Of a DNA stretch of 64,000 nt, positions 14,988 to 49,378 are shown one piece after another. The stretch's first letter is position 1. The number at the start of each line of letters is the position of its first letter. A model generated the notes under the pieces. The model saw nothing but the letters and a program-made list of their open reading frames with translations, was not told the origin of the DNA and made no database searches. Source of the DNA: Nitrospirae bacterium UBA2233. GTDB taxonomy: Bacteria; UBA2233. Location: NCBI GenBank assembly GCA_002347965.1, contig DDYN01000013.1:18674-82673 (forward strand), in the 5' to 3' direction. The translations under genes and the position numbers were made by a program.

Positions 14988-15063
14988 TGGTGCCGAGGGA
15001 CGGAATCGAACCGCCGACGCAAGGCTTTTCAGGCCTTCGCTCTACCGACTGAGCTACCTCGGC
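14988..15063 (-). tRNA. tRNA-Phe(GAA): tRNA-Phe (anticodon GAA)
   Basis: 76-nt cloverleaf: acceptor GCCGAGG/CCUCGGC, D-arm GCUC-AGUCGGUA-GAGC, anticodon loop CUGAAAA, T-loop UUCGAUU, 3' CCA encoded. Confidence 0.9.
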
Positions 15064-21366: not shown

Positions 21367-21442
21367 GGTCCCATCGTCTAGCGGCCTAGGACACTGGCCT
21401 CTCAAGCCAGAAACACGGGTTCGAAGCCCGTTGGGACCACCA
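21367..21442 (+). tRNA. tRNA-Glu(CUC): tRNA-Glu (anticodon CUC)
   Basis: 76 nt: acceptor GGUCCCA/UGGGACC, D-arm GUCU-AGCGGCCUA-GGAC, anticodon loop CUCUCAA, T-loop UUCGAAG, CCA encoded. The position was cross-checked against the overlapping ORF frame. Confidence 0.85.
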
Positions 21443-35605: not shown

Positions 35606-36556
35606 ATGAAACCTCTTTCGACATGGCTCGCCAAAAAGCTAGTCAGCAACAAACGGGGCGACCCAGAGGCGCTGAGCCGTATCGCTGCCATCATGACCAT
35701 TGTCGTAAATCTCGCTTTGTTCATGGCAAAGCTCTTTACGGGAATCACCATCGCCAGCATGGCGCTCGTTGCGGACAGCCTGGATTCGCTGTTCGACGTG
35801 CTTATCGCGGGTGTTATGTGGTTCGGCTTCCGGGTTGCCTTCAAGCCTGCGGATTCAGAACACCCTTTCGGCCATGGCCGGTTCGAGCACGTGGCCACGC
35901 TTATCCTGGCAATGCTCCTGACCTTGACTGGCATCTCGATCGCTTATGCGAGCATTCAAAGGTTGAGCGGGGAACCAAAAATTCAGCTTACAGACTGGGC
36001 CTTGTTCGTTATCGTCATAAACGTTCTGCTAAAGCTCTTTCTCGTTCGGTTCTCCATGAGGCTTAACCTTGAGATCGAAAGTGGCACCATCGAGGCAAAC
36101 GTGTGGAACCTGTTCGGAGACGTACTGTCCTCTTTGGTCGTGCTTGTTTCCCTCCTGGTTTACCGCTTTACTGGTTTTCCTCACTTGGACGCCTGCGCAA
36201 GCCTCCTTATCTCCGCCATGATCTTGAGCGTTGCCGTGAAGTTCTTCAAAGAAGCCTCTTCTACCCTCATGGGAAAGGCTGTCCACACAGAAGACGTCGA
36301 ACGTATCCGAAGAATCGCGGAAGGTACCAAAGGGGTGAAGGGCGTACATGAGATTGTATGGCACAGCTACGGCAGGAAGCACGTCGTGTCGATGCACTTG
36401 GAGATCGATAAGAACCTTACAGTTGGGAAGGCTCACCGGATCACCCAGGAGGTTGAACGCAGCATCCTGGGCACGCAACGGCACATTCAAAGCCTCGTTA
36501 TCCACGTAGACCCTGCCACGGAAGGAGGTTGCTCCAAGGGTACCGCCTCTTCCTGA
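35606..36556 (+). CDS. Cation diffusion facilitator (CDF) family transporter
   Basis: 6 TM helices with HxxxD-type sites and a C-terminal cytoplasmic domain. Confidence 0.85.
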   Translation: MKPLSTWLAKKLVSNKRGDPEALSRIAAIMTIVVNLALFMAKLFTGITIASMALVADSLDSLFDVLIAGVMWFGFRVAFKPADSEHPFGHGRFEHVATLILAMLLTLTGISIAYASIQRLSGEPKIQLTDWALFVIVINVLLKLFLVRFSMRLNLEIESGTIEANVWNLFGDVLSSLVVLVSLLVYRFTGFPHLDACASLLISAMILSVAVKFFKEASSTLMGKAVHTEDVERIRRIAEGTKGVKGVHEIVWHSYGRKHVVSMHLEIDKNLTVGKAHRITQEVERSILGTQRHIQSLVIHVDPATEGGCSKGTASS

Positions 36557-37485
36557 GGAAAAGGAGAAAGGCCGAGCGCTTCGAGCGCCAAGAAGGCCGC
36601 ACCCATCTCGGGCGGGAACAGCGGTTGCACCGGTTTTGCGTCCGGAAACCTGCTCTTTACGGTTCTCAGGAACATCTCAAGAAACGCCTCGTTCCTAAAG
36701 AGGCCGCCTGCCGTCGCGAAAGAAAACGCCTCTTGCAGTTGTAGCTTTCGAACGAGCGCTTCGAGCGCTCGCAAAAGATCTTGAGCCCCTTCCAGCACAA
36801 TCCTTTCTGCGACCATATCGCCCTCGAACCCTAACGAAAGGACCTCCGGGGCAAACCGCGCAATCACGTCAACCCTCGAACGGCTCCGGTATACCAAGGG
36901 AAGAACGCCCGAGGGGTCCTCGATGCAGTAGAACGTCATGAGGGCTTGGGGCAGACGCGTTTCAGGCCCTGTCCCGTCTACACTTCGCAGCGCCGCCCGT
37001 ATTCCCTTCCTGCCCAAGTCAAACCCGCTGCCTTCGTCGCCAAGAAGAAACCCGAAACCTCCCGTCCGCCCGGCCTGCCCCTTGGCATTCCTCCCTAACA
37101 CCACCGAACCAGTACCTGCTATGACGAGCACGCCAGGGTTTCCGGCGAACGCCCCCAGAAGGGCAACGCTCGCATCCGTGTGGGTGAGTACGACAGGGGA
37201 TCCCTCAAGGCCCCTACGGACGAGCGCCTCAAGCCTATGCTTCCTTCGGTTCGCCTCTAGGCCTGCTATCCCAAGACAGACAGCGCGGATTACGGGACTA
37301 AAAGACGCCAGAGGAGTAAGGGCTTCCGAGAGTGCCCGGTTGAATGCCAAAAAAAACCCCCCCAAGCCCACGATGTTCGGGTTGGCAGGGCCCGCCAACG
37401 ACACGCTCAAGGGCCTTGCGTACAGGTCGGCGACAACGCAGGCGGTTTTCGAGGCCCCCATATCCAGCCCGACTACGACGTCCAT
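36487..37485 (-). CDS. BadF/BadG/BcrA/BcrD-type ATPase (N-acetylglucosamine kinase-like)
   Basis: GLDMGASKT phosphate-1 motif and an AGTGS motif. ATG at 37485. Confidence 0.7.
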   Translation of the reverse strand: MDVVVGLDMGASKTACVVADLYARPLSVSLAGPANPNIVGLGGFFLAFNRALSEALTPLASFSPVIRAVCLGIAGLEANRRKHRLEALVRRGLEGSPVVLTHTDASVALLGAFAGNPGVLVIAGTGSVVLGRNAKGQAGRTGGFGFLLGDEGSGFDLGRKGIRAALRSVDGTGPETRLPQALMTFYCIEDPSGVLPLVYRSRSRVDVIARFAPEVLSLGFEGDMVAERIVLEGAQDLLRALEALVRKLQLQEAFSFATAGGLFRNEAFLEMFLRTVKSRFPDAKPVQPLFPPEMGAAFLALEALGLSPFPQEEAVPLEQPPSVAGSTWITRL

Positions 37486-37492
37486 CGCCCGC

Positions 37493-38317
37493 TCAAACCC
37501 GGACGGAGCGCACCATCCCGAGCGCGCTACGGATCTCGAAGGCAAGCTCCTCGATGGATTTATGGGTTACATCGAGCATCCGCCATCTTCGATGGCGTCG
37601 GCAGATTTCTTCAAACTCGTGGACCTCCGACGTCACGCGCTCTGGGTCTACGTACTCGCGCGGCAACGTGTAGGCCCTGGCCATCACCCTGGCCTTCCTG
37701 CGCTCGATCAAGATTTCGACGGCTATCGTTAAGGCAAAAACTTTCTTTGGGTCTAGCGTAAGAAGCTTTTCAGAAAGCGGCACCTCCGGCACGTACGGAA
37801 CGTTCGCCGTCTTCATTCCCAGGCATGCGAGGTACATCGAAAGCGGGGTTTTCGAGGTTCGTGAAGGGCCCACGAGTACCGCATCTGTTTCGTCGAGCGA
37901 TTCAACGCCGGCTCCGTCATCATGCGCGATGGTAAACTCGATCGCGTTGATCCTGTCGAAGTAGTGGTTGTCCATACGGTACAAAAGCCCTGCCTTCTGC
38001 TCTGGCTCTTCATGGAGGTAGTCCCGAAGCGTAGACAGCATAGAGCCCATCAAGTCGGCATAAAGAATAGGCTTTCCCTTGGCCAACGTAACAAACGCCT
38101 CGCGAAGGTTCTTTTGTACGAACGTAAACACCACGAGTCCCCGGACTTTGCTGGCCTCCTCAATAAGTCGCTGAACCTGCTCGAGCGTCCGCGTCCTTGG
38201 GACTCGTATCATATCGACCGCATGATCACCCAAATCAAACTGGACCAAGCAAGCCCTTAGGACTTTCTCGGCCGTGTCTCCGGTGGCATCGGACACGAGG
38301 AACACGGGCTTTTTCAT
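37493..38317 (-). CDS. PEP synthase / PPDK regulatory protein (kinase/pyrophosphorylase, DUF299)
   Basis: P-loop GPSRTSKTPLS motif. ATGA overlap with the mpl stop. Confidence 0.85.
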   Translation of the reverse strand: MKKPVFLVSDATGDTAEKVLRACLVQFDLGDHAVDMIRVPRTRTLEQVQRLIEEASKVRGLVVFTFVQKNLREAFVTLAKGKPILYADLMGSMLSTLRDYLHEEPEQKAGLLYRMDNHYFDRINAIEFTIAHDDGAGVESLDETDAVLVGPSRTSKTPLSMYLACLGMKTANVPYVPEVPLSEKLLTLDPKKVFALTIAVEILIERRKARVMARAYTLPREYVDPERVTSEVHEFEEICRRHRRWRMLDVTHKSIEELAFEIRSALGMVRSVRV

Positions 38318-39747
38318 GCCTTCTCCCTCGCTAACGCGTCCAAAATTCGTTCTTTGAACGCTTGGGTATCCGCATTCGACAAAAGGACGAGAACAAATGG
38401 GCTTCCTAAAGAAGGCGTAAGCGTTTTTTCAACAAGCCGGCCTGTATCCGGTTCGATGCAAGCCTTGACCCCGCGGGTTTGGAGCGTTTGGACAACTCCT
38501 TGTGGGTCTATTCGCTCGTCTTCCGGAACAGCGTCCAGACGGTCTGGAGGACGAAGAAAGACCGCGTCGGCCAAGCATAAGGCATCTATCAGCGCTCCTT
38601 GAAGAATGCGCCTTCGCATCGTGTTGGACCTCGGCTCGAAAATAACCCGAACCTCCCTGTTAGGGTAAGAATCCCTGATTGCCGTCAATACGGCCCGAAC
38701 TGCCGTAGGATGGTGGGCGAAATCCTCGATCACGGTCGCATGGCCTGTTTCCGCCAAAATTTCAACCCTTCGCCGAACGCCATGAAAAGCCTGAAGGCTC
38801 TGGGCTGCGGACCGAACCTCAGCACCGAGGAGCAAGGAGACCCCAAAGGCGGCCGTCAAGTTGCGGGCGTTGAACATCCCCCTAAGCGGCGTCTCGATGG
38901 ACACCTCTTGGCCGAGGGTCCCGCCAACAACGCGAAAGCATGCACCGTCGCCGGTATGGCGAAAGTCGCGGATGGAAAACGCGTCGTTCTGGCAATCCCC
39001 AAAGGTATACATCCTGCCTCGAAAGCCCTCCAAGAGGCCGTGTAACCCTTGAATTTCCGAGGAGGCAAGGAGAAACCCTTCGGGGGGAACCAGGCTTGCG
39101 AGGAATCGGAATGCGTCGCGAACGTGCCCCAAGTCTCTGTAGATGTCCGCATGGTCGAACTCGACATGCGTAAACACGAGCCCAAAGGGCGCGTAATGGA
39201 ATGCCTTGGGATGCTTGTCAAAGCAAGCCGTATCGTACTCGTCGCCTTCAAGCACGCAAAACGGCCCCTGCCCTATGCGATACCCCTGCTTTGTGTCGCG
39301 CGGAATCCCGCCGATAAAGTACGAAGGGTCAAGGCCGGCCTCAAAAAGGTTCCAGGCAATCGCCGAAGAAGTGGTCGTCTTTCCGTGGGTCCCCGCCACA
39401 ACCACGGCTCGCTTGTCTTGAATGAGGAACATCCTGAGCACTTCTGGGAGCGAAAACACGGGGGCATTGGCCAGGAGCAGCGCGTCAAGCTCCTGGTTTC
39501 CGTAAGAAACGGCATTCCCTACGACAAAGAAGTCTGTCTTGCCTGTTTGCGATGCGACCTTCCCCGCGTCGTATCCGACTCTGTAAGGAATACCCTTCTC
39601 CTCCAGAAGGTCCCTTGCCGGAGGATACACGCCCTTGTCCGAGCCAGCCACCTCAAAGCCTAGATCTTTGAGTATACAGGCCAAGTTAGCCATGGCGATC
39701 CCCCCGATGCCCAAGATGTAACAGCGGCCGGGAGGTTTTAATCTCAC
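38314..39747 (-). CDS. mpl: UDP-N-acetylmuramate:L-alanyl-gamma-D-glutamyl-meso-DAP ligase (murein peptide ligase)
   Basis: MurC/Mpl N-terminus ILGIGGIAMANLA and a Mur ligase central GTHGKTTT motif. GTG start overlaps the upstream stop (GTGA). Confidence 0.8.
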   Translation of the reverse strand: MRLKPPGRCYILGIGGIAMANLACILKDLGFEVAGSDKGVYPPARDLLEEKGIPYRVGYDAGKVASQTGKTDFFVVGNAVSYGNQELDALLLANAPVFSLPEVLRMFLIQDKRAVVVAGTHGKTTTSSAIAWNLFEAGLDPSYFIGGIPRDTKQGYRIGQGPFCVLEGDEYDTACFDKHPKAFHYAPFGLVFTHVEFDHADIYRDLGHVRDAFRFLASLVPPEGFLLASSEIQGLHGLLEGFRGRMYTFGDCQNDAFSIRDFRHTGDGACFRVVGGTLGQEVSIETPLRGMFNARNLTAAFGVSLLLGAEVRSAAQSLQAFHGVRRRVEILAETGHATVIEDFAHHPTAVRAVLTAIRDSYPNREVRVIFEPRSNTMRRRILQGALIDALCLADAVFLRPPDRLDAVPEDERIDPQGVVQTLQTRGVKACIEPDTGRLVEKTLTPSLGSPFVLVLLSNADTQAFKERILDALAREKA

Positions 39748-40241
39748 GGCGCTAGCACCCCGAACCGCTCGACGCGAAGCGTATCCCCGACCACGCTTCC
39801 TGTAACCCATAGCGTAGCCCCGGGCTTTGGAAGGGCCTCTTCCCTGAGTCCTCCAACATCCAGCTCAAGCGCTCGGCCTTCGCCGCTCTCAAGGCGAAAC
39901 CTGCCGTCTTCTTTGCGGAGAACCCCCACGAAAGGCCGCTTCCCCGAAATCGACAGGATCGTGTAGTTGCGGACATCGACTTCCGGGTAGGGAACAGACG
40001 GACGAAGCTCCCCCTCTAGCAAGACATGCGCGCCCGGAAGGCCAACGAGCCCCTTCTCCATCTTTCCGGAGAGCCTGACGTGAGTTCCGTCTTCGGTTCG
40101 AAGGAGGCAGACCGCCCTCCCTTTTTCCTCGATGGCGACAAGGGTTCCCGACGAACGGAACACACGTGAAGACTCGCAGCCCAGTGTCAGCAAAGCCATG
40201 CACGACAACAGTCCACACACCCGAGCGAACCTATTTAACAC
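39744..40241 (-). CDS. Hypothetical lipoprotein (~165 aa)
   Basis: A GTG start gives a signal peptide MLNRFARVCGLLSCMALLTLGC with lipobox LTLGC. It lies 8 nt after the stop of the upstream HEXXH gene. Confidence 0.5.
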   Translation of the reverse strand: MLNRFARVCGLLSCMALLTLGCESSRVFRSSGTLVAIEEKGRAVCLLRTEDGTHVRLSGKMEKGLVGLPGAHVLLEGELRPSVPYPEVDVRNYTILSISGKRPFVGVLRKEDGRFRLESGEGRALELDVGGLREEALPKPGATLWVTGSVVGDTLRVERFGVLAP

Positions 40242-42330
40242 GAACGACCGTAACGCCCAAAGGATAGGGCGTTTCCGTGGAAAAGACCACGTTTCGTTCC
40301 TTTGGGCCGTTCGTCGAGACAAGCTCGAAAAACGAAGCGCCTGCCGTTGGGATCACGTTGGCTACGGCTGGAAGCCTCAAGGGCAAGACCGACCCGAAAG
40401 GAACCCACGCTATCGGGTTGTCCCAGTCGAGGGCTGGAGTGCTCGCCGGGATGGACTCAAGCCTTTTAATGTAAGGCCCCGTAAAATATACCCGCCCAAA
40501 CCCGCCAAAGTCTTCATTTCCCGTATCGTTCGGCCCGTAGATTCTGATGCCTACCTCCTGGCCGCTCAAGGGGTCTCTTACGGGCTCTTTGTAATGGTAG
40601 GCTTCCCCCTTGAACCTTTGAACACCCTCCAGCACAAGCGTGGCGTACCAATCCTTCATAAGGTCCGCAAAAGGCCTGTTCGAAGCCTGTTCGATCGCCC
40701 GCATTTCCTTGTTTAGGCCGGAGTAAGAGAACACCCGGTAGAGCCAGGCTATTCCCCCGTTATCGTTGAGAGCTCCGCTCCTTGAAATGCTGGCTCCGCC
40801 AGCCCGGTCGAACAAGTAGCGTAAAAATAAATACCCCAGCCCACGCCTGTAAGGCGAGTCCCCTCCGCCTTCATCGCCAAGATCGTAGCTCACGAACACG
40901 TCCTTGCCAGTCAAGGAAAGGTTTGGAAAGGCCGTCAGGGCGAACAGCGCAAGCTGCTTGGGGCCGGAGGGCTCGGAGCCGTACCCGGAGAGATCCTCGG
41001 CCAGGTACGCCAATGCTTCCGTAAACCAGGTTACGGGTGTGCTCGCAAGCTCCCTGCGCGCGCTCGGTTCTACGATACGGTTGCCGAAGTAGATGAGATG
41101 GGCAAGCTCGTGCGCCATCGTCGCCAGAAGAATCCCGTTTTGACCAGCATCCTCCGGGACGAACGCATAAAACACCTCCCCCTCGTTGCTGAAAGGGTTG
41201 AGGCTTTCTTCCGGCGCGTCAGAATCGGCCATGTTGGGGAACAAATCGGTCATGATTGTAAACCCCGAGGCCTGCGTGCCGTTCAACACGGGCGTCAGGA
41301 ACACAATGACCTTACCGTTTCCGTCTACGTCCGTAGGCGCCCCGATAACCTGCATATCCCGCGGAACAATCGTCTCGTTGGCGACACGAACGAGCGCATT
41401 GAGCGCATCGTCCGAAAATCCTTGGGCTTCGGCATCAAGATATAGGTCTACATAGCTTCCTTGGGAAATACGCCTTGCCGGCCGCTCAAGCGCGCTACGG
41501 CCTCCCGACTGGATCACGCCGTTTTGCCATTTTGGGTCCAGGTCAAGCCCCGTCACATCCACGTAGAACGTCCGCATGTCGCCATCTCGTGCCGAAGGCA
41601 ATGAGGGCTCCTGAGAGGGGGATGTCTGCATGGCCCCTTCCGACTGCTCCTGGTTCTTAATAGGGGCAACCTGCAGTGACAACCCATCAGGGGTGGGTGC
41701 TTGTCGCCCAGGCTCGGTTAGAGCAGGGGCAGTCTCCTGCGCAGACTGAGCAGGCGGCTTGACGGCAGCCTGCGGGGCGACTGGAACCGCCACGGGAATC
41801 AAGATGGGGGGAACGGCTAAGCTCACGTGGGCCTGTGCAAGCGGTCCAATGTCCGCGTTAAACAACCGGGCGAGGGCCTTCTGCCTTGACCGGTCGAAAA
41901 GAATCCTCGCCGAGCCGGAGGCAATCGTTTCCTGCTGCGTTTCCATGGCAAACGGGTTTACCGACATGGGGTTCTGCCAGTCGTGCACGCCCGAGGGCCT
42001 CGACAAAAGAAAGCGGAAGCTGTGCCCTTGAAGCTTCAGCTGGTAGGTTGGATCGCCCAAATTGGCGTTGGCCGGGTTTGGGACGGGCGTCACGTAGCTT
42101 GCAAGCCCTTGGGATTTGTCGACATCCGGAAAATACGGGTCGGCGTGTACGATGACCACGTACGCCTCTTCCCCTTTTGGCTCCGGAAAAACCAACGAGG
42201 CTGACCCGGAGGGCGTAGGGACGTTGTAGGACTCTCCCGCGCTTTGATTGATTCGGTAGGTCAACCCAAACACGTGCATCGGGAAAAGCAGCAGAAGCCC
42301 AAGGAAACCCATTGATCTAAACAAGGTCAT
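40231..42330 (-). CDS. Secreted putative zinc metallopeptidase (HEXXH + downstream Glu, gluzincin-like), 699 aa with a Pro/Ala-rich linker
   Basis: Signal peptide. HELAH, then about 20 aa further on TEALAYLAED. Strong AGGAGGAGG RBS. Paralogous to the adjacent 515-aa ORF. Confidence 0.6.
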   Translation of the reverse strand: MTLFRSMGFLGLLLLFPMHVFGLTYRINQSAGESYNVPTPSGSASLVFPEPKGEEAYVVIVHADPYFPDVDKSQGLASYVTPVPNPANANLGDPTYQLKLQGHSFRFLLSRPSGVHDWQNPMSVNPFAMETQQETIASGSARILFDRSRQKALARLFNADIGPLAQAHVSLAVPPILIPVAVPVAPQAAVKPPAQSAQETAPALTEPGRQAPTPDGLSLQVAPIKNQEQSEGAMQTSPSQEPSLPSARDGDMRTFYVDVTGLDLDPKWQNGVIQSGGRSALERPARRISQGSYVDLYLDAEAQGFSDDALNALVRVANETIVPRDMQVIGAPTDVDGNGKVIVFLTPVLNGTQASGFTIMTDLFPNMADSDAPEESLNPFSNEGEVFYAFVPEDAGQNGILLATMAHELAHLIYFGNRIVEPSARRELASTPVTWFTEALAYLAEDLSGYGSEPSGPKQLALFALTAFPNLSLTGKDVFVSYDLGDEGGGDSPYRRGLGYLFLRYLFDRAGGASISRSGALNDNGGIAWLYRVFSYSGLNKEMRAIEQASNRPFADLMKDWYATLVLEGVQRFKGEAYHYKEPVRDPLSGQEVGIRIYGPNDTGNEDFGGFGRVYFTGPYIKRLESIPASTPALDWDNPIAWVPFGSVLPLRLPAVANVIPTAGASFFELVSTNGPKERNVVFSTETPYPLGVTVVRVK

Positions 42331-42347
42331 ACGCCTCCTCCTAAGGG

Positions 42348-43895
42348 CTACGGGACAAGGTAAACCGCAAGCAAGCCAGAGTCGCCTCGAAACGTGACGT
42401 CTACGTAGACCGAGGAAGAAGCAGTCGGGTTAAAAAACCGTGCGCTGCCCCCTTGAACCGTCCAGCTTCCAGACGGGTCCGGCTCGAACGCTGGCCCATT
42501 GAACGGAATCGTAACCATGTTCCCCTTGCAGTTATCGCAGTTAACCGATCTATTCCCTCTAAGCGCAATACCCACGGTCTGGCCAGTAACGGCGTCTTTT
42601 TTGGGCGGGTCGTAACGGAACCCTTGCTCTTCAAGGCCAAGCATCCCGTCGGCTATGAGCGTGGCAACCCAGTTCACGAACAACTCCTTAAACGGCCTAC
42701 CTGTTGCCTTCTCGAGGTTAGCCCTTCCTGAGAGCCCGCTCGATAAAAGTTTACGGGTAAACGTTGCACCTCCTTTATCCACAAGATTTCCCGTAGTGTC
42801 AAACCCGGCAGCCCCTCCTGCCTGCTCGAACAGGTAGCGAAGGAACAAGTAGGCTGCCCCGCGCTGGGCAGCCGTGTCGGTATTTCCGCCAGCATCCGGC
42901 CCTGTCAAGGAGGCATCGGGGGCGGATTGGAGGTATTCGAACGACATGGCGGGCGGTCCGTTACTATCATCGCCAAGCCCGCAGTTGTCCTCGGCCATGT
43001 ATGAAAGCCCCTCGTTAAGCCAGACTTCCTCCGGTACGGCGTTCGGGATTTCATAAATACGTCTGGAGAAATTAATCAGATGCTGGTATTCGTGCGCAAT
43101 CGTGGCGTACAGCAAATTCCTAGAAACCCGGCCGGCAACAGGAGTCGCGTAGATGATCTCCTGCTGGTTGCTGGATGGGTTTGAAAAGATTCGCCTAGGA
43201 AAGAGGTCGGCCGCACTGAAGAACCCCACGGCACCGCTGTTTTTGAACCGATCGCTCAAAAGTACGCTGAAGCGAGCATCCCCGTTGATGTCCGATTCCT
43301 GGCCGAATAGAAGCCTGTCCCTGGGTACGATGAGATCGTCTATCCTACGAACAAGCTCGGGGACAAGCCCGGGCTCTACAGAGATACCTTCTTCTTGGTA
43401 TACGTTGGCGTACTTGGTTTGCTCGATCAGCTTCGCTTGAATAACCATTACACCCTTGCCCGGTACAAGGCCCGTCAGGTCAAGATAGAAAGGGGTCGTG
43501 CCCGGGCTTGAGCCGGAAGCCATGGGCATGGCCTGGGTCTTGCGCTGCCTTTGAAATCGCTCGAGCCCTAGGACTTGCCATTCCCGCTGCCTTAAAACGG
43601 ATTCGAACTCACCCATCCTTGGGTCGCGAGGCAAATCAACCGGAAAAGAAAGCCCCAGCATCTTGACCAAGGGGCGCATGGCGGGAATTTCCGCGTTAAA
43701 CACGGTCGTCCCGATACCATCGGGCGAGGCCACTGCGAAGGCCTTAAAATCCGCCCCGGAAAGCGGCACCTTGACCGTACCCTTGGCCTGGAGCGTCCTG
43801 AGCTCTAGCGCCCGCCCTGTCAGCGGGGTTACAAGCGAAAGCAGGCAGCAAGCCAAGAAAAAACGCTTGAGAAACCCTATTTTTTGGGATTCCAC
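42348..43895 (-). CDS. Secreted putative zinc metallopeptidase (HEXXH + Glu, gluzincin-like), 515 aa; paralog of 40231..42330
   Basis: Signal peptide. HEYQH...NEGLSYMAED, plus blocks shared with the paralog (IVPRD, DLFP, YLFLRYLF-x-AGG). Confidence 0.6.
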   Translation of the reverse strand: MESQKIGFLKRFFLACCLLSLVTPLTGRALELRTLQAKGTVKVPLSGADFKAFAVASPDGIGTTVFNAEIPAMRPLVKMLGLSFPVDLPRDPRMGEFESVLRQREWQVLGLERFQRQRKTQAMPMASGSSPGTTPFYLDLTGLVPGKGVMVIQAKLIEQTKYANVYQEEGISVEPGLVPELVRRIDDLIVPRDRLLFGQESDINGDARFSVLLSDRFKNSGAVGFFSAADLFPRRIFSNPSSNQQEIIYATPVAGRVSRNLLYATIAHEYQHLINFSRRIYEIPNAVPEEVWLNEGLSYMAEDNCGLGDDSNGPPAMSFEYLQSAPDASLTGPDAGGNTDTAAQRGAAYLFLRYLFEQAGGAAGFDTTGNLVDKGGATFTRKLLSSGLSGRANLEKATGRPFKELFVNWVATLIADGMLGLEEQGFRYDPPKKDAVTGQTVGIALRGNRSVNCDNCKGNMVTIPFNGPAFEPDPSGSWTVQGGSARFFNPTASSSVYVDVTFRGDSGLLAVYLVP

Positions 43896-44275
43896 GATCC
43901 TTTCCTTTCGACCGTAACCCGAATTATCGTCTCGTTTTCGCCGGCGGCGAGCGAAATGCTTCCCCGCGCCTTGAGCGGCAGGTTTGCTATAAGGTAGGTA
44001 ATCGTCGCGTCATCGATGTCCCTCCTTCCGATTTCCCAACCGGCCCTGGAAAGCTCTTTTTGATAAAAAGCATCGACTTTGGCGAGGTCGTCCCCCGTTT
44101 TAAGGTCAGCAGAGAAAACCTCGAGCGTTTTCGCCTCTTGCGTCCGTACAACCTTTGCTTGAGGATACACGGGGATGGTGCTTGGATAGGCCTTCGGAAA
44201 CGTAAGTCCCAAGCACATTGCAAGCAGCATCAACCCCGTACCGAGCGTTGCACATTGAACTGGTCGAAATTTCAT
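43877..44275 (-). CDS. Hypothetical small lipoprotein (132 aa)
   Basis: ATG at 44275 with a GGAGGAAAGG RBS. Lipobox LAMC. The 3' end overlaps the GTG start of the downstream HEXXH gene. Confidence 0.55.
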   Translation of the reverse strand: MKFRPVQCATLGTGLMLLAMCLGLTFPKAYPSTIPVYPQAKVVRTQEAKTLEVFSADLKTGDDLAKVDAFYQKELSRAGWEIGRRDIDDATITYLIANLPLKARGSISLAAGENETIIRVTVERKGSWNPKK

Positions 44276-44385: not shown

Positions 44386-45918
44386 ATGCTTACCCAACGT
44401 TCGCTCGCAAGGCAAGCTCTTACCGTCTCGCTCATGACGTTCCTGAGCCGTGTTTCAGGGGCCGCGAGGGACATGCTCACGGCCTACGCCTTCAGCCCAT
44501 GGGTTACAGACGCGTTTTTCCTGGCCTTTCGCATTCCCAACGTCTTTCGACAGCTACTGGCGGAAGGGGCCATGAACGCCGGGTTTGTCCCCGTCCTGGC
44601 CCAGGAAAAGTCCAGGGGAACACCCGATCATTATGGAGCATTTCTACGGGCAAGTCTAGGCGCCCTTCTGGCGGTGCTTATCGCGACCTGCCTGATGGGC
44701 ATTGTTTCTGCGCCATGGATTATCCGCCTGTTTGCACCCGGGTTTTCTAGCGACCCCTCGCAACTCCGGCTGGCTAGCAGGCTGCTTGCGCTTTGCTTCC
44801 CGTACCTTTTCCTTATTGGCCTGTGCGCGTTCTTTGCCGGCATCCTCAACGTCGAGGGTTCGTTTTGGGGCCCGAGCTTTTCGCCCGTCGCCTTCAACGC
44901 CACGCTATGCTCTGTGATCTTTTTTTCGATGCACATTCGGCCTAACTGGGGCTACAGCCTAGGACTGGGCGTCCTTTTAGGCGGACTGGCCCAGCTTGTT
45001 TTTCACCTGATCCCGCTTAAGGAACGATCGAGGCGCTTAAGGCCCTCCTGGAACCCTGCACACCCTGCCTTGAAACAGATGGCCTTTCTTATCCTTCCGA
45101 CCCTCCCCTCTTTCGGCATGACACAGATAAACATTCTTGTCGACAGCCTATTCGCGACTCTTTTAGGCAAAGGGGCCGTGTCGGCCTTGTACTACGCCGC
45201 AAGATTGCTCGAATTTGCTATAGGGATCGTACCGATCGCGCTTGCCACCGTTACCCTCCCAAGGTTCGCGACACTGATCGCCAAGAACGAAAAAAAGGCC
45301 CTCGAAGCAGGCTTTCAAAAGACGCTCTTCTTGACGCTCTTCTTGACGTTCCCGGCGGCAGTTGGCCTTTTCATCCTTGCTACGCCGATCGTTCGCCTCG
45401 TTTACGAACGCGGGAATTTCCTGCCCGAACTGACGCATTCGACGTCCGCGGCGCTCGTTGGGTTCTCGATCGGGCTGGTTCCTTACGCGTTCATCCGGAT
45501 CTTGGTTAGCACCTTTTACGCCTTTCAGGACACAAAAACGCCGTTGGTTTGGTCCTTTGTGGGGATGTTAGCGAACGTCCTCGGAGATTATTTTTTTCTT
45601 GGGTTCGGAGCCTTCGGCCTGGCGCTGGCCACTTCGCTCTCTGGCTGGATTCAGCTGATCGGGCTTAGCCGCTCACTGAAGGCCTCCCGTCAGCTTGATC
45701 TAGGGCTGCTTCTTTCCGCCCGGGCGCTTAAAGTCTACCTTGCGGGGGTTTCGATGCTAGCCGCCTGGTATTTCCTGGTAAAAGGTTGGCTTCTTGGCCT
45801 TTCGAGTGTTGCTGCGTTTTCCTTCGCCGTTATCGGCGTCATCGCGTTCCTGGCGTTGACGTACTTCAGCGCCTACTTCGGGTTTGGCCTAATAGGCAAA
45901 CTACGCGAGCGTCTTTAG
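44386..45918 (+). CDS. murJ: Lipid II flippase MurJ (MviN)
   Basis: 510 aa, 14-TM MOP family. Conserved N-terminal RDxLxAYAFS and FFLAFRIPN motifs. Confidence 0.9.
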   Translation: MLTQRSLARQALTVSLMTFLSRVSGAARDMLTAYAFSPWVTDAFFLAFRIPNVFRQLLAEGAMNAGFVPVLAQEKSRGTPDHYGAFLRASLGALLAVLIATCLMGIVSAPWIIRLFAPGFSSDPSQLRLASRLLALCFPYLFLIGLCAFFAGILNVEGSFWGPSFSPVAFNATLCSVIFFSMHIRPNWGYSLGLGVLLGGLAQLVFHLIPLKERSRRLRPSWNPAHPALKQMAFLILPTLPSFGMTQINILVDSLFATLLGKGAVSALYYAARLLEFAIGIVPIALATVTLPRFATLIAKNEKKALEAGFQKTLFLTLFLTFPAAVGLFILATPIVRLVYERGNFLPELTHSTSAALVGFSIGLVPYAFIRILVSTFYAFQDTKTPLVWSFVGMLANVLGDYFFLGFGAFGLALATSLSGWIQLIGLSRSLKASRQLDLGLLLSARALKVYLAGVSMLAAWYFLVKGWLLGLSSVAAFSFAVIGVIAFLALTYFSAYFGFGLIGKLRERL

Positions 45919-47256
45919 CCTTCGTGAAAGGTACTCTCTCGAAATCCCTAAAGACCTGGCCGTTTTTGTGATGTTCCCGTCGAACAACTCTAGGCGATCC
46001 AAGATCAGCCGGCTCTCGAAGCGCTTTCTGGCTTGCTCGAGGTTTTCGGCTATCCGCTCCTCGTCCGAGCGGCCCCCTGGAGAGGGTAGAGGCTTTGGGC
46101 GCTCGAATAAATCCAAACAAACCTGCCTCATTAACTCCGTACCGATACGACCGTCCTGGGAAAAGATCAAGAGTCTTTTCGTGACATTCTTGAGTTCCCT
46201 GACATTGCCAGGCCAGGAATATTCCCGAAGAACAGCGAAGATATCCGGGTCGACCTGCCTGACTGGCTTGCCCACTTCCCTTTCCGCCATTTCTAGGAAA
46301 TACCAGAAAAGAATTTCGATATCTCCTTTACGCTCCCTGAGCGGGGGAATCCACAACGGAACAACGTTTAGCCGAAAATAAAGATCCTCCCGGAACTTTC
46401 CCCGATCGACCTGCCCCCCGAGTTCCCGGTTCGTCGCCGTCACCACACGTACGTCAACCGTAAGCAGATCGTTGCCCCCTAAGCGGCTCAAGGTCTTCTC
46501 TTCGATTACCTTTAGCACCTTGGCTTGGGCCGCAAGGCTCAAGTCTGCAACTTCGTCCAAAAATAATATCCCATCGTGGGCCATCTCAAACTTGCCCCTC
46601 TTTTGCTGGTAGGCACCCGAAAAGGCCCCCCGCTCATACCCAAAGAGTTCGGCTTCCAAAAGTTCGTCCGGGATCGCGGCACAGTTCAACTCTACAAAGG
46701 GCCCTTCAACCCTGTCGGAAAGCCTGTGAATCTCCTTGGCAAGCAACCCTTTGCCCGTCCCGCTTTCACCACAAATAAGGACCGTTACGTCTGCCTTGGC
46801 AACGAGAAGTACCTTACTTTTTAGGTTTTTAACCGCCTCCGTCTCTCCTACGAACCCTTCGAGAATGTCCGGGACTTCGCTTTTGAGAGGTTGTCGACTT
46901 CGCACCCTGAGGGCTTTCTTGACGGTACCAAGAAGTTTTTCCAGCGCAACGGGTTTTTCTAGGAAATCGTAAGCACCAAGCTTGATCGCCCGAACCGCGT
47001 CTTCGATCTGGCCATGGCCCGAAATGACTATGACAGGCGGGCGCAACCCATCCTTTAGCGATTCCAGAAAATCCAAGCCATCGCCATCGGGCATTTTGAT
47101 GTCCAATAGAAGAAGGTCCGGGGTTTCTTCATCCAGCAGGGAGCGAGCCTTGTAGAGGCGATCGGCCGTTTGTACAGAATACCCCTCATCCTCCAGGATG
47201 GTCTTGAGAATTTGGCAGATCCCCTCTTCATCGTCAACTACAAATACGCGCGCCAT
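45901..47256 (-). CDS. ntrX: Sigma-54-interacting response regulator (NtrX/NtrC-like: REC + AAA+ + Fis HTH)
   Basis: Receiver domain (VVDDE..D), Walker A GESGTGKG, a GAFSGA variant of GAFTGA, and a C-terminal HTH_8. ATG at 47256. Confidence 0.85.
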   Translation of the reverse strand: MARVFVVDDEEGICQILKTILEDEGYSVQTADRLYKARSLLDEETPDLLLLDIKMPDGDGLDFLESLKDGLRPPVIVISGHGQIEDAVRAIKLGAYDFLEKPVALEKLLGTVKKALRVRSRQPLKSEVPDILEGFVGETEAVKNLKSKVLLVAKADVTVLICGESGTGKGLLAKEIHRLSDRVEGPFVELNCAAIPDELLEAELFGYERGAFSGAYQQKRGKFEMAHDGILFLDEVADLSLAAQAKVLKVIEEKTLSRLGGNDLLTVDVRVVTATNRELGGQVDRGKFREDLYFRLNVVPLWIPPLRERKGDIEILFWYFLEMAEREVGKPVRQVDPDIFAVLREYSWPGNVRELKNVTKRLLIFSQDGRIGTELMRQVCLDLFERPKPLPSPGGRSDEERIAENLEQARKRFESRLILDRLELFDGNITKTARSLGISREYLSRRLKTLA

Positions 47257-47269
47257 ACCCCTGAGTACC

Positions 47270-49378
47270 TCATGAAGGCTTTCTTGTCGGTAAGTAGACC
47301 TCGATGGTTGCCCCTCCCCAATCATTCGCGTGCAATCGAATCTCCCCGCCGTGGGCCTCGACGATACCCCTGACCAGCCCGAGGCCAATTCCTGAGCCTT
47401 GAGCCTTCGTCGAGAACGATAGATCCCCCAAGACGGGCAACGCCTTCTTCGGGATCCCCTTGCCAGAATCCTCGACAAACAGGCTTATCCCGCCTGAAGG
47501 CTCGTAGCGGCTCCGAAGGCGCAAGATTTTGGAGGAGGCAGCGGCCTCTTCCATCGCCTCAAGGCCGTTCTTGATCAGGTTCACGAGTGCCCGGCGGACA
47601 TAATCGGGGTCAAGCGATGAGCTCGGAACACGGGGATCAAGCTCGAGCTTCCATCGAACATCCGGAAACACCGTGCGGTAGCTCTGGACAAGCCCCGTGA
47701 GCAACTCGTTCACGTCGGTCATCGCAAGCCTTAAGCTTGGAAGCCTTGCATAAGCGCTAAAGTTGTCGACGAGTAGCGTGAGCTCTCCTACCTCCCTCAC
47801 GATAATCCCCGTACATTCCTTAAGGACTTCGCGCTCCTTTGCCGTGCGAGGCTTCAAGGCTTTCGAAAGCCTCTCTGCACTCAGCCTTATGGGCGTCAAA
47901 GGGTTTTTGATCTCGTGGGCGACGTGTCTTGCCGCCTGTTGCCACACCTGCGTCTTTTGAGCCAGCACGAGCTCTGTCTGGTCTTCTACGACAACCAGAA
48001 AAAGCCCCCCTTCGGAGCGGTCTTTTGGCCGGATGGCCGAAATAAACCATACGAGATACCTGTTATTACCCCGGACATCCTTTACCTCTAACGGCAAGGT
48101 AAGGCTGGAACCTTTGGCATGGTTCATTCGTCTGAGCAGCTCATGTCCCTTGAGAACGAACCAGGCCTCGAGCACCCTCCAGTAGGCCATGCCCGCGTAC
48201 ACGGAATTACCGTTTTTCAGGAAAGCCTTTGCGGGTTCATTGATCGAAATAAGCCTACCCCTGAGGTCGATTCCGATGACTGCGGCCGTTATATGATTGA
48301 GCAATCCCTCGAGGTACCGATTCTTTCCCCAGAGTTCATCCTGAACCTTTTTTAACTCTCCCATCATCTGGTTGAACGCCTCGACCAAGGCAGAAAACTC
48401 CCCGTTGTCCTCTACATCGAGCGCATTCTCGTATTTACCGATCCGCACGGACGCAATGGCTTCGGACAGCCGCCTTAGAGGCACCAGAAGTGCGTTGGCA
48501 AACTTGAAGGCGCCCCATGTCGCCACAAATAGCACGCAAAAAAAGATATTCGTGAACAAAAGAATATAGAGCGCCTTAATAGGGCTTTTGAGAACATCGG
48601 CCTTTTGGTAGGCGGCCTGAAGTTGCTCAAGCTGCCCTTTCCCTGCTTTCCACGCATCCGGAACCCGAAAGCGGACGACCCAAGGAGGCTCTACCCATAC
48701 CCAGTCTGGCACATCCCTAGAAACTCTCTCTTGTGGAACGGGGAATGCGCCATCTGCCACGGACCCCGTTAGTCGCTCTACACTGACGCCTCCCCCAAGA
48801 ACCCCCTCCAGCTGTTTTTCGAGCGCTTGGGGTGTCAAAGCCCGCCGTTCCGAAAGGAGGACCTCGAGTACGCCGCCTATTTCTTTGTAGCGGGCATCCA
48901 TTAACTCATCTTGTAACGCTTTAACACCCTGAAACGTGGATTGCACCTGGGAACCAAACCAGCCGTTAATCACCTGGATCACGATAAAGATGCTGGGGAT
49001 GAACAAGCAAAGGGCGGGCAACAGCGAGGTAACCAGCGACACGAAGAGCATTTTCTTGACAAGCGAACTCCCCAACAGTCCGCGTCTTTGCTCGATTCCC
49101 AGCTTCGTAATGTTTCGAACAAAAAGGAAGACGACGAGCGCGAGTAAGAAAATGTTGAAATTAAGGAACAAGAAAAAAGGGAGGTTCGTAACCAAGGGAA
49201 GCTTTTCGGCGTAGCGCGTCGCCGTAAGCTGTACTGCAAGGGCGACAAGGAAGGCTACAAGAGATACTCCTCCTACGATAAGCTCAATCTTGCGCTTTTT
49301 GTGCTCATTCATCCTGGCAGGCCGCATGCGTTTCGAATATTTAGGCTTTGCGCCTACCCCCATTATGCCATAGAGCAT
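47270..49378 (-). CDS. ntrY: Sensor histidine kinase, NtrY-like (TM + HAMP + PAS + HisKA + HATPase)
   Basis: H-box HEIKNPLTPIRLSAERL. GGGAGGAG RBS 8 nt before the ATG. Confidence 0.85.
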   Translation of the reverse strand: MLYGIMGVGAKPKYSKRMRPARMNEHKKRKIELIVGGVSLVAFLVALAVQLTATRYAEKLPLVTNLPFFLFLNFNIFLLALVVFLFVRNITKLGIEQRRGLLGSSLVKKMLFVSLVTSLLPALCLFIPSIFIVIQVINGWFGSQVQSTFQGVKALQDELMDARYKEIGGVLEVLLSERRALTPQALEKQLEGVLGGGVSVERLTGSVADGAFPVPQERVSRDVPDWVWVEPPWVVRFRVPDAWKAGKGQLEQLQAAYQKADVLKSPIKALYILLFTNIFFCVLFVATWGAFKFANALLVPLRRLSEAIASVRIGKYENALDVEDNGEFSALVEAFNQMMGELKKVQDELWGKNRYLEGLLNHITAAVIGIDLRGRLISINEPAKAFLKNGNSVYAGMAYWRVLEAWFVLKGHELLRRMNHAKGSSLTLPLEVKDVRGNNRYLVWFISAIRPKDRSEGGLFLVVVEDQTELVLAQKTQVWQQAARHVAHEIKNPLTPIRLSAERLSKALKPRTAKEREVLKECTGIIVREVGELTLLVDNFSAYARLPSLRLAMTDVNELLTGLVQSYRTVFPDVRWKLELDPRVPSSSLDPDYVRRALVNLIKNGLEAMEEAAASSKILRLRSRYEPSGGISLFVEDSGKGIPKKALPVLGDLSFSTKAQGSGIGLGLVRGIVEAHGGEIRLHANDWGGATIEVYLPTRKPS

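Follow-up and report, generated by a model that had tools for sequence, protein, structure and literature searches.

Tandem M30-like peptidase genes and a small downstream partner gene that recurs in several bacterial phyla

Genes and junctions at the locus

The window (the whole stretch of DNA analysed, 64,000 nucleotides from Nitrospirae bacterium UBA2233) contains four co-directional genes on its minus strand: lipoA (132 aa), M30a (515 aa), M30b (699 aa) and lipoB (about 158–165 aa). These genes, their neighbours and the peptidase motifs discussed below are as follows.

44386..45918, plus strand: murJ (TIGR01695, 379 bits)
43877..44275, minus strand: lipoA, small exported protein of 132 aa
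42348..43895, minus strand: M30a, predicted exported M30-like zinc endopeptidase of 515 aa
43080..43094, minus strand: HEYQH of M30a (H268, E269, H272), two zinc ligands and the catalytic base
42987..43016, minus strand: NEGLSYMAED of M30a, with E295 as third zinc ligand of the gluzincin type
42828..42866, minus strand: QRGAAYLFLRYLF block of M30a, with R345-G346 at the position of lugdulysin Tyr315
40231..42330, minus strand: M30b, exported paralogue of M30a, 699 aa, open reading frame with a GGAGGAGG Shine-Dalgarno sequence
41581..41838, minus strand: Pro/Ala-rich low-complexity spacer of M30b, about residues 165–250
41098..41112, minus strand: HELAH of M30b (H407, E408, H411)
40993..41022, minus strand: TEALAYLAED of M30b, with E438 as presumed third zinc ligand
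39744..40241, minus strand: lipoB, lipoprotein with the lipobox LTLG↓C
38314..39747, minus strand: mpl-like Mur ligase gene, best match TIGR01081
37493..38317, minus strand: ppsR-like regulator gene, in the block 36487..38317
36487..37545, minus strand: gene of a BadF/BadG-type NagK-like kinase, in the same block

The start of lipoA is the ATG at 44275, which is preceded by GGAGGA. lipoA overlaps M30a by 19 nt, and M30a is separated from M30b by 17 nt carrying the strong Shine-Dalgarno sequence. M30b and lipoB overlap by 11 nt or are separated by 10–31 nt, according to the start codon of lipoB (GTG at 40241, about 165 aa, or GTG at 40220, 158 aa). The GTG start of the mpl-like gene shares the sequence GTGA with the lipoB stop codon, and the ppsR-like and nagK-like genes follow on the same strand with overlapping junctions, the gene string being unbroken from lipoB through mpl. 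The operon in the source genome probably runs on into mpl, ppsR and nagK. The mpl-like product reaches 297.6 bits with TIGR01081 (cutoff 388.7), which is still its best match; the match of the nagK-like product is also below its curated cutoff. Synteny with mpl is kept at three related loci, one of which (L009) shows about 46–50% identity. Divergent murJ begins 110 nt upstream of lipoA. No match to a sigma-54 promoter pattern was found upstream of lipoA; matches to this pattern over the whole window, and sigma-70-like and terminator-like sites in the locus region, did not exceed the level of shuffled sequences.

The open reading frames of 515 aa (42348–43895) and 699 aa (40231–42330) reported in the first-pass annotation are borne out, as are its tight or overlapping junctions. 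The span it assigned to the system (40231–44275) covers lipoA, M30a and M30b but omits lipoB (39744–40241). A closed four-gene module, as proposed there, is not supported, since the genes continue into mpl and the ppsR-like and nagK-like genes.

The twin peptidases and their placement in family M30

M30a and M30b share 32% identity over 391 aa (E=2e-52), in agreement with their earlier description as tandem paralogous secreted gluzincins. The HEXXH+E arrangement claimed for both is present: in M30a HEYQH (residues 268–272) is followed by E295, 23 residues past the second His, and in M30b HELAH (residues 407–411) is followed by E438, 27 residues past the second His. In a 62-sequence family alignment H268, E269, H272 and E295 are invariant, and E302 of M30a is nearly so (57/62). 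Loss of catalytic residues in orthologues, raised as a possibility in the first-pass annotation, was checked, and none of the orthologues examined has lost them: all retain HEXXH in both copies, and the M30b orthologues (46–100% identity) have HEL[AH]H.

The blocks IVPRD, DLFP and NEGLSYMAED/TEALAYLAED are common to both proteins, as had been noted; the last shared block reads YLFLRYLF-xx-AGG, with a spacer of two residues and not one. Both peptidases begin with the expected signal-peptide-like segment (all signal peptides here were judged by eye). In M30a a small N-terminal region comes next, the catalytic domain starts at about residue 133, and residues 446–514 form a beta domain at the C-terminus. 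In M30b the signal peptide leads into a conserved domain at the N-terminus (about 22–165); beyond the spacer lie the M30-like catalytic region and then the C-terminal domain. The Pro/Ala-rich linker already recognised in this longer copy (about residues 165–250) is present across orthologues, its sequence being variable. The N-terminal domains and the spacer differ between M30a and M30b, and therefore the two proteins probably differ in their targets or reach. They probably arose by an old duplication that preceded the split from the lineage of L009; the neighbour-joining tree of the peptidases is a rough one, which neither dates this duplication nor shows whether the link with lipoB is ancestral.

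M30a and M30b are distant relatives of staphylococcal lugdulysin. A sequence search for the identity of the peptidase gave lugdulysin at E=1.4e-14, and the AF2 model (pLDDT 82.4, pTM 0.84) matched the solved M30 structure by Foldseek at E=2.8e-15 and has its fold, in agreement with the M30/hyicolysin-like placement that had been offered as possible. The direct match of M30b to lugdulysin is weak (E=0.017). HEYQH of M30a aligns with HEYQH of lugdulysin, in which the Glu is E242, mutated in PDB entry 7bb9, and E295 (NEGLS) aligns with the Glu of lugdulysin NEALS at an identical spacing of 23 residues. An ungapped HMMER alignment over the Tyr315 region (DTAAQRGAAYLF / DTLSNYSLSYLF) places R345 of M30a, and correspondingly R496 of M30b, opposite lugdulysin Tyr315. 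Among 62 family members this position is occupied by Arg in 58 and by Tyr in 3, and G346 is invariant. The clade thus appears to have Arg in place of an active-site Tyr, a role for the Tyr that is suggested by the title of entry 7bb9.

Scans of all four proteins against Pfam and NCBIfam gave sub-threshold matches only. With PF10460, M30a scored 17.3 bits against a cutoff of 25.8 and M30b gave no match; E<0.01 was reached by only 9 of the 62 family members. The NCBIfam model NF045524 (MXAN_6640 family putative metalloprotease) gave 18.9 bits against a cutoff of 140, and 21.1 bits for a Myxococcota relative. Matches to SprT and DUF4916 were dismissed as noise.

Compared with lugdulysin of S. lugdunensis (PDB 7bb8/7bb9) and hyicolysin ShpII (MEROPS M30, clan MA(E)), to which they are about 18–19% identical, M30a and M30b carry additional domains at the N-terminus, a spacer and a beta domain at the C-terminus. 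They also differ in the diderm host, the tandem duplication and the dedicated downstream partner gene. Similarity to M1 aminopeptidases, LTA4 hydrolase and M9 collagenases is far weaker than to M30, and unlike M1-type gluzincins the two proteins have neither the GXMEN exopeptidase motif nor the M1 domain architecture.

The small proteins and the recurrence of the peptidase–lipoB pair

The peptidase genes had been described as bracketed by two lipoprotein genes, which holds downstream (lipoB) but not upstream, where the Cys of lipoA is not conserved. In lipoA the supposed lipobox 'LAMC' has Met at position -1 and its Cys is replaced in a 62%-identical orthologue, while a signal-peptidase-I-like site, (C/L)LG↓L(T/S), is conserved in the orthologues (130–132 aa). 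The protein consists of an N-terminal hydrophobic segment followed by an 'FP..YP.AKV...FY..EL...GW' domain of about 100 aa. Its HMM matched solely in Nitrospirota loci among the loci examined, and phmmer against 1.84 billion representatives found 90 weak relatives at E<=1e-3 and only lipoA itself at E<=1e-10. By these searches lipoA appears to occur only in the source Nitrospirota clade, where it could be a lineage-specific small periplasmic accessory protein. Pfam and NCBIfam scans (also of its relatives) and a PDB profile search named no family for it; a sub-threshold match of lipoA to TcpF in the family scans was regarded as noise, as was a PDB match to TcpF (E=0.018), which spans the signal peptide.

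The lipoprotein nature of lipoB, as first proposed, is upheld: the Cys of its lipobox is conserved in orthologues, with LILGC in Nitrospirota, LLSGC in L009 and LVFSC in Latescibacterota. The mature protein of 144 aa is a tandem of two homologous beta modules, each about 65 aa long (N-half against C-half, hhalign probability 85.7%, E=5.5e-6). The AF2 model, built on a shallow alignment, has a pLDDT of 56 and is confident only for the C-terminal module, which matches OB folds with weak E-values (0.04–0.3); the description of the modules as OB-like comes from this one module. Conserved positions are Gly and hydrophobic residues, and polar or catalytic residues are not conserved. A comparison of lipoB with PDB sequences gave no match. 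DUF5818 (PF19135) matches lipoB in two stretches at 22.7 bits (cutoff 27), and precomputed matches are present on some lipoB orthologues; the lipoB-like proteins of other phyla gave no match to this family, and no mention of it was found in the literature.

A lipoB-like gene lies directly downstream of an M30-like gene in Nitrospirota, Myxococcota and Latescibacterota, including eight Myxococcota-type loci, which may be non-independent of one another, and three Latescibacterota-type loci. The lipoB HMM matched only ORFs immediately downstream of an M30-like gene, all of them on its strand and either overlapping it or lying within about 100 nt, and nothing else in about 1.2 Mb of loci examined. 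In the reverse search, from the side of lipoB, a peptidase gene was found upstream at 4/4 loci. The paired peptidases are only 25–35% identical across the three phyla. At least one partner of every pair has a lipobox, carried by the peptidase only in Myxococcota, by both proteins in Latescibacterota and by lipoB only in Nitrospirota. The C-terminal domain of the peptidase was tested as a marker of lipoB-linked members and does not mark them.

The conserved unit is thus peptidase plus lipoB, which recurs in at least three phyla. The distribution of the proposed four-gene cassette does not support it as a unit: lipoA is limited to one Nitrospirota clade, and lipoB accompanies the peptidase at 10 of 69 evaluable genome loci of peptidase relatives. 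Most of the relatives (at least 561 at species level) are single genes with neither small protein. Since lipoB is absent at the other 59 loci, the fold can function without this partner.

Possible roles of the partner protein and significance

Overall, we give an even chance to the explanation that the M30-like peptidase pair is controlled by lipoB as a partner. According to this explanation M30a and M30b would be zinc endopeptidases of the M30 branch of the gluzincins, exported by Sec and competent in catalysis. Zinc would be held by the two His of HEXXH and by the Glu 23–27 residues downstream, while the HEXXH Glu would activate water; the Arg-Gly that replaces lugdulysin Tyr315 probably polarises the carbonyl of the scissile bond or stabilises it. 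lipoB would be a non-catalytic dedicated partner of such peptidases, which in the most likely reading would bind to its peptidase within the periplasm and exert control as a guard, keeping the enzyme latent or aiding its maturation. It could be likened to the inhibitors and foldases whose genes come after those of other secreted hydrolases, and in Nitrospirota it would provide the sole lipid anchor among the four proteins. The sequence and model data show the family and fold of the peptidases, the conservation of their catalytic residues, the export signals and the pairing of the genes across phyla; we infer the binding of lipoB to the peptidases, the direction of regulation, the substrates and the final location, and likewise the role of lipoB as guard or inhibitor, chaperone or adaptor. 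A cell-envelope system is plausible from the export signals and the neighbouring genes (murJ, mpl and nagK-like here; asmA-like and lgt in Myxococcota).

The arrangement found, in which the next gene downstream on the same strand encodes a small, exported protein without catalytic function, is that of known protease/inhibitor pairs. In the serralysin systems AprA/AprI and PrtA/Inh and in staphopain/staphostatin the gene of a secreted protease is followed by that of a small beta-barrel inhibitor. Like these inhibitors, lipoB is small, exported, all-beta, co-oriented and devoid of catalytic residues. Unlike the AprI-type inhibitors, to which it has no sequence relation or demonstrated fold relation, it is built of a tandem pair of OB-like modules and carries a lipid in some lineages. 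TIMPs are OB-fold inhibitors of metzincin metalloproteases, in which zinc is chelated by the free N-terminal Cys. lipoB may resemble them as an OB-type beta barrel that partners a zinc endopeptidase; the Cys of lipoB, by contrast, would be lipidated and is absent in Myxococcota, and the likeness is one of analogy only.

Alternatively, lipoB could be an adaptor or tether that docks one or both peptidases at the membrane and/or brings envelope substrates to them (cf. NlpI/Prc and LbcA/CtpA), so that proteins or lipoproteins would be cleaved within the envelope. The position of lipoB in Nitrospirota as the only lipid anchor beside two peptidases with ordinary signal peptides would suit this role, as would the OB-like modules, which are typical binding modules, and the adjoining envelope genes. 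In Myxococcota, however, the peptidase itself is lipidated and the lipoB-like protein is soluble, therefore anchoring is not the conserved function; moreover, the neighbouring envelope genes differ between phyla, and to our knowledge protease adaptors are usually not encoded beside their protease, which counts against an adaptor. We consider this role rather unlikely. It is improbable that the peptidases act with mpl, the nagK-like gene and divergent murJ in the turnover of peptidoglycan or of the envelope, for example by trimming murein-linked proteins or peptides that feed the Mpl recycling ligase. The shared GTGA of lipoB and mpl, and the order M30a-M30b-lipoB-mpl-ppsR-nagK kept at L009, where the peptidases are only 46–50% identical, speak for such a link, but it is found only in the Nitrospirota lineage, and the pairs of other phyla have different neighbours. 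The ppsR-like gene in the middle of the string is unrelated to murein, and the mpl and nagK matches are those below curated cutoffs. Hyicolysin and lugdulysin are described as protein-cleaving metalloproteases, and we know of no M30 enzyme that is a murein hydrolase.

It also seems highly doubtful that there is no functional module at all, the peptidases being ordinary secreted scavenging proteases from a large family in which tandem duplication is frequent, and the flanking small genes being unrelated to them. The size of the family, the prevalence of single genes and of loci without lipoB, the recurrence of tandem peptidase duplicates in other lineages (seven loci) and the lineage-specific nature of lipoA would all agree with this. 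Against it, the lipoB-like gene keeps its position and strand beside the highly divergent peptidases of three phyla, was found nowhere else in the loci examined, was accompanied by a peptidase gene in every case of the reverse search, and is joined to it by overlapping or very short junctions.

Returning to control by a dedicated partner, it is tentatively proposed that the lipoB family may be an undescribed class of dedicated regulators of M30-type gluzincins in diderms, associated with an Arg-variant M30 clade in at least three phyla, and that the twin Nitrospirota peptidases may share one lipid-anchored copy. Such regulators would be counterparts in principle, by analogy, to TIMP/AprI-type inhibitors or Lif-type foldases.

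M30 is among the least studied gluzincin families. The only members found named in the literature, hyicolysin and lugdulysin, are both staphylococcal, and the only solved structures found are those of lugdulysin (7bb8) and its E242Q/Y315F mutant (7bb9). The present results add a much larger environmental M30-like clade in diderm phyla, which is missed by curated Pfam and NCBIfam models and whose members could be annotated as 'M30-like metallopeptidase' in place of 'hypothetical protein'. In several phyla the gene of the M30-like peptidase is accompanied by that of a small protein dedicated to it as a partner. Should this protein be an inhibitor, chaperone or adaptor, it would represent a new protein-level control of zinc proteases and would give a function to a DUF-like family.

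Gene string and the flanking protein lipoA

The two neighbouring paralogous HEXXH+E proteins, M30a and M30b, are encoded between the genes of two small proteins, lipoA and lipoB, as follows:

43877–44275, minus strand: lipoA, 132 aa; GGAGGA before the ATG
42348–43895, minus strand: M30a, 515 aa; AGGAAAGGA precedes the GTG start
40231–42330, minus strand: M30b, 699 aa; GGAGGAGG precedes the ATG
39744–40241, minus strand: lipoB, 165 aa from GTG 40241, or 158 aa from GTG 40220
36487–39747, minus strand: mpl-like, ppsR-like regulator and BadF/BadG-type NagK-like kinase genes, downstream of lipoB, with overlapping junctions

The lipoA and M30a genes overlap by 19 nt, and 17 nt separate M30a from M30b. 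The M30b/lipoB junction is an 11-nt overlap or a gap of 10–31 nt, according to the lipoB start chosen (orthologue P0133 starts at the position of GTG 40220). The mpl-like Mur ligase begins at a GTG that overlaps the stop codon of lipoB as GTGA. Because these genes share a strand and have overlapping junctions, the string from lipoA to the nagK-like gene may be one seven-gene transcription unit. murJ is divergent from lipoA, 110 nt upstream, and the G+C content of the locus is not unusual.

Directly past murJ, a sigma-54-type NtrC/NtrX-like response regulator and a histidine kinase are encoded (45901–49378, minus strand), syntenic in Nitrospirota; the region upstream of lipoA yielded no sigma-54 promoter. 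The only RNA genes of the window (Rfam/ARAGORN) are tRNA-Phe(GAA) (14988–15063, minus strand) and tRNA-Glu(CTC) (21367–21442, plus strand).

Two flanking lipoproteins had been proposed in the first-pass annotation, and this holds for lipoB, which has a proper lipobox (LTLG↓C) with a conserved Cys. lipoA is ruled out as a lipoprotein: position −1 of its 'LAMC' is Met, and an orthologue of 62% identity has another residue for the Cys; the conserved site is instead '(C/L)LG↓L(T/S)'. Judged by these residues, lipoA is a predicted exported non-lipoprotein. Its domain of ~100 aa ('FP..P.YP.AKV...FY..EL...GW') has no match in Pfam, NCBIfam or the PDB, and its relatives are all weak (90 at E<=1e-3 among 1.84 billion representatives). 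Many small exported proteins (P0139–P0227) carry a domain of this type ('LP..FP.D.P.YPGAKV ... FY..EL...GW'), either alone or as a tandem; the Pfam and NCBIfam versions used contain no model for it, and precomputed tables give a weak match to PF27226 (AF_1845).

M30 assignment and active site of M30a and M30b

The first-pass annotation tentatively placed both large proteins near M30/hyicolysin and proposed profile searches and fold comparison. In Pfam, Peptidase_M30 matches M30a alone, below threshold (17.3 vs 25.8 bits), with no match for M30b, and an NCBIfam scan gives a sub-threshold match to MXAN_6640. A PDB sequence search finds lugdulysin with M30a (E=1.4e-14) and with M30b (E=0.017). 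M30a was also modelled with AlphaFold from an alignment of 62 sequences (pLDDT 82.4, pTM 0.84), and the top Foldseek match of the model is again lugdulysin (E=2.8e-15), followed by M1 aminopeptidases and M9 collagenases. Lugdulysin (PDB 7bb8, 7bb9) is an M30 zinc metallopeptidase of Staphylococcus lugdunensis, secreted and with a possible role in osteoarticular infection (PMC6429511); M30 is the hyicolysin family, belonging to the gluzincins of MEROPS clan MA(E) (PMC3890501). The initial placement is thus correct, by both sequence and fold, and M30a and M30b add new, divergent proteins to a known family.

Their paralogy, recognized earlier from shared blocks, is confirmed by 32% identity over 391 aligned residues (E=2e-52); IVPRD, DLFP, NEGLSYMAED/TEALAYLAED and YLFLRYLF-xx-AGG are all found in both. 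The signal peptides noted on both proteins are likewise present by inspection: a charged n-region leads into a hydrophobic core, and small residues mark the cleavage site (predicted at TGRA↓LE in M30a and VFG↓LT in M30b). Since the Cys residues of the M30a signal peptide vary among orthologues, both proteins appear, by inspection, to be signal-peptidase-I substrates. M30b additionally has a conserved domain at its N-terminus (about residues 22–165), after which comes the low-complexity spacer already described as Pro/Ala-rich; in an orthologue at 46% identity the spacer is Glu/Gln/Ser-rich. A CxxC (NCDNC, residues 452–456, 42528–42542) lies in the C-terminal beta domain of M30a. M30a orthologues keep it, even the one at 50% identity (KCTSC), and M30b and distant relatives lack it. 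The two Cys may form a disulfide or bind a metal.

Across the 62 aligned sequences, H268, E269, H272, E295 and G346 (M30a numbering) are invariant, and R345, E302, W292, Y249 and R353 nearly so. E295 lies 23 residues past the second His, a spacing identical to that of lugdulysin; the third-ligand Glu of M30b lies 27 residues past it. Loss of catalytic residues in orthologues, named earlier as evidence against a peptidase, was not found: HEXXH is kept in every orthologue of M30a and M30b, down to 46–50% identity. M30a and M30b are gluzincins of the M30 type that are exported and have their catalytic residues intact.

PDB 7bb9 is the E242Q/Y315F double mutant of lugdulysin. Residue counting on the alignment as printed puts E242 at the HEXXH Glu and Y315 at the Tyr of SNYSLSYLF, which aligns ungapped with M30a R345 (DTAAQRGAAYLF) and M30b R496. 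This position is Arg in 58 of the 62 sequences and Tyr in three, which defines an Arg-variant clade of M30: where lugdulysin has Tyr315, a position mutated in 7bb9, the clade of M30a and M30b has Arg. Arg is able to polarize the scissile carbonyl in zinc peptidases, e.g., Arg127 of carboxypeptidase A. The residue pattern suggests that Tyr and Arg split by sub-clade. The Tyr-bearing members are P0025, P0087 and P0132; the two members with an InhA-like MAM domain are among them.

Distribution, duplication and the lipoB partner

Close orthologues (64–100% identity) are found in Nitrospirota MAGs only, and the next relatives reach <=37%. With each species represented by a single genome, a scan gives at least 561 relatives in Nitrospinota, Myxococcota, Gemmatimonadota (often with Big_1/Big_2 domains attached), Latescibacterota, Chloroflexota and other phyla. 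The tandem with the same neighbours is retained in Nitrospirota loci L001, L004 and L012–L015. It is also present in L009 at 50% identity to M30a and 46% to M30b, so the duplication is old. Independent tandem duplicates, with two or three M30-like copies, occur in other phyla (L028, L037, L054, L065, L089, L039, L047); tandem paralogy is therefore a recurring habit of the family. In a rough tree, the nearest M30a relative outside the Nitrospirota orthologue group is that of Nitrospinota locus L016 (4367–6001), itself a lipoprotein (LAAG↓C, then a poly-Gly stretch), with no lipoB-like gene within the available 666 nt downstream.

When a lipoB HMM was run on all ORFs of 94 retrieved loci and the window, it matched only same-strand ORFs immediately downstream of an M30-like gene. 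Such pairs, with junctions that overlap or leave a gap of at most about 100 nt, occur in eight Myxococcota-type loci (L008, L017, L020, L022, L025, L026, L029, L032), in three Latescibacterota-type loci (L045, L049, L067) and in Nitrospirota. The partner is present at 10 of the 69 genome loci (from 80) with enough downstream sequence to be evaluated. In the reverse search, with a Myxococcota-type lipoB alignment against metagenome contigs, an M30-like gene lies directly upstream at 4/4 loci. The paired peptidases are 25–35% identical to M30a and fall into at least three groups (rough tree). Peptidase and lipoB are a conserved pair across phyla. Of the four-gene module proposed in the first-pass annotation, this pair stands, recurring in three phyla; lipoA, with HMM matches confined to Nitrospirota loci, does not, and the string extends into mpl.

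Latescibacterota-type pairs are also flanked by sigma-54 regulators. Myxococcota-type pairs are preceded by a divergent ~1365-aa AsmA-like gene and lgt. In L008 (8896–10379; also L020, L022, L026, L029, L032) the pair is followed by one gene, or by two paralogous ones, for exported proteins of ~240 aa that match no family.

Anchoring and possible role of lipoB

The halves of lipoB are homologous (hhalign probability 85.7%, E=5.5e-6), and DUF5818 matches two stretches below threshold. The model is weak overall (pLDDT 56); its C-terminal module (pLDDT about 80) appears to resemble OB folds. Conservation among lipoB-like proteins is limited to Gly and hydrophobic positions, and conservation analysis revealed no candidate catalytic residues. 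The partner gene, conserved, co-oriented and tightly spaced, thus encodes a non-catalytic tandem beta-module protein. Anchoring differs by lineage:

Myxococcota-type pairs: peptidase with lipobox; lipoB-like protein with plain signal peptide
Latescibacterota-type pairs: lipobox in both
Nitrospirota: plain signal peptides in both peptidase copies; lipobox in lipoB

The favoured role of lipoB is that of a periplasmic guard: the lipoB-like partner would bind the peptidase and could provide latency or maturation. Inhibitor or foldase genes follow secreted hydrolase genes in aprA-aprI, staphopain-staphostatin and lipA-lif, as lipoB follows the M30-like gene. The main rival explanation makes lipoB an adaptor or tether for the peptidase. 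Every pair has a lipid anchor on at least one of its proteins, as predicted from the lipobox, and this pattern would agree with a membrane-proximal complex; since the anchored member differs by lineage, the conserved function of lipoB is something other than anchoring. The peptidases could also be tied to murein recycling via mpl, nagK and murJ. Gene order through mpl/ppsR/NagK-like is retained in L009, where the peptidases are just ~46–50% identical, but the link is confined to the Nitrospirota lineage and has a low probability. What sets these M30 members apart is the Arg at the R345 position, together with a partner that recurs across phyla.
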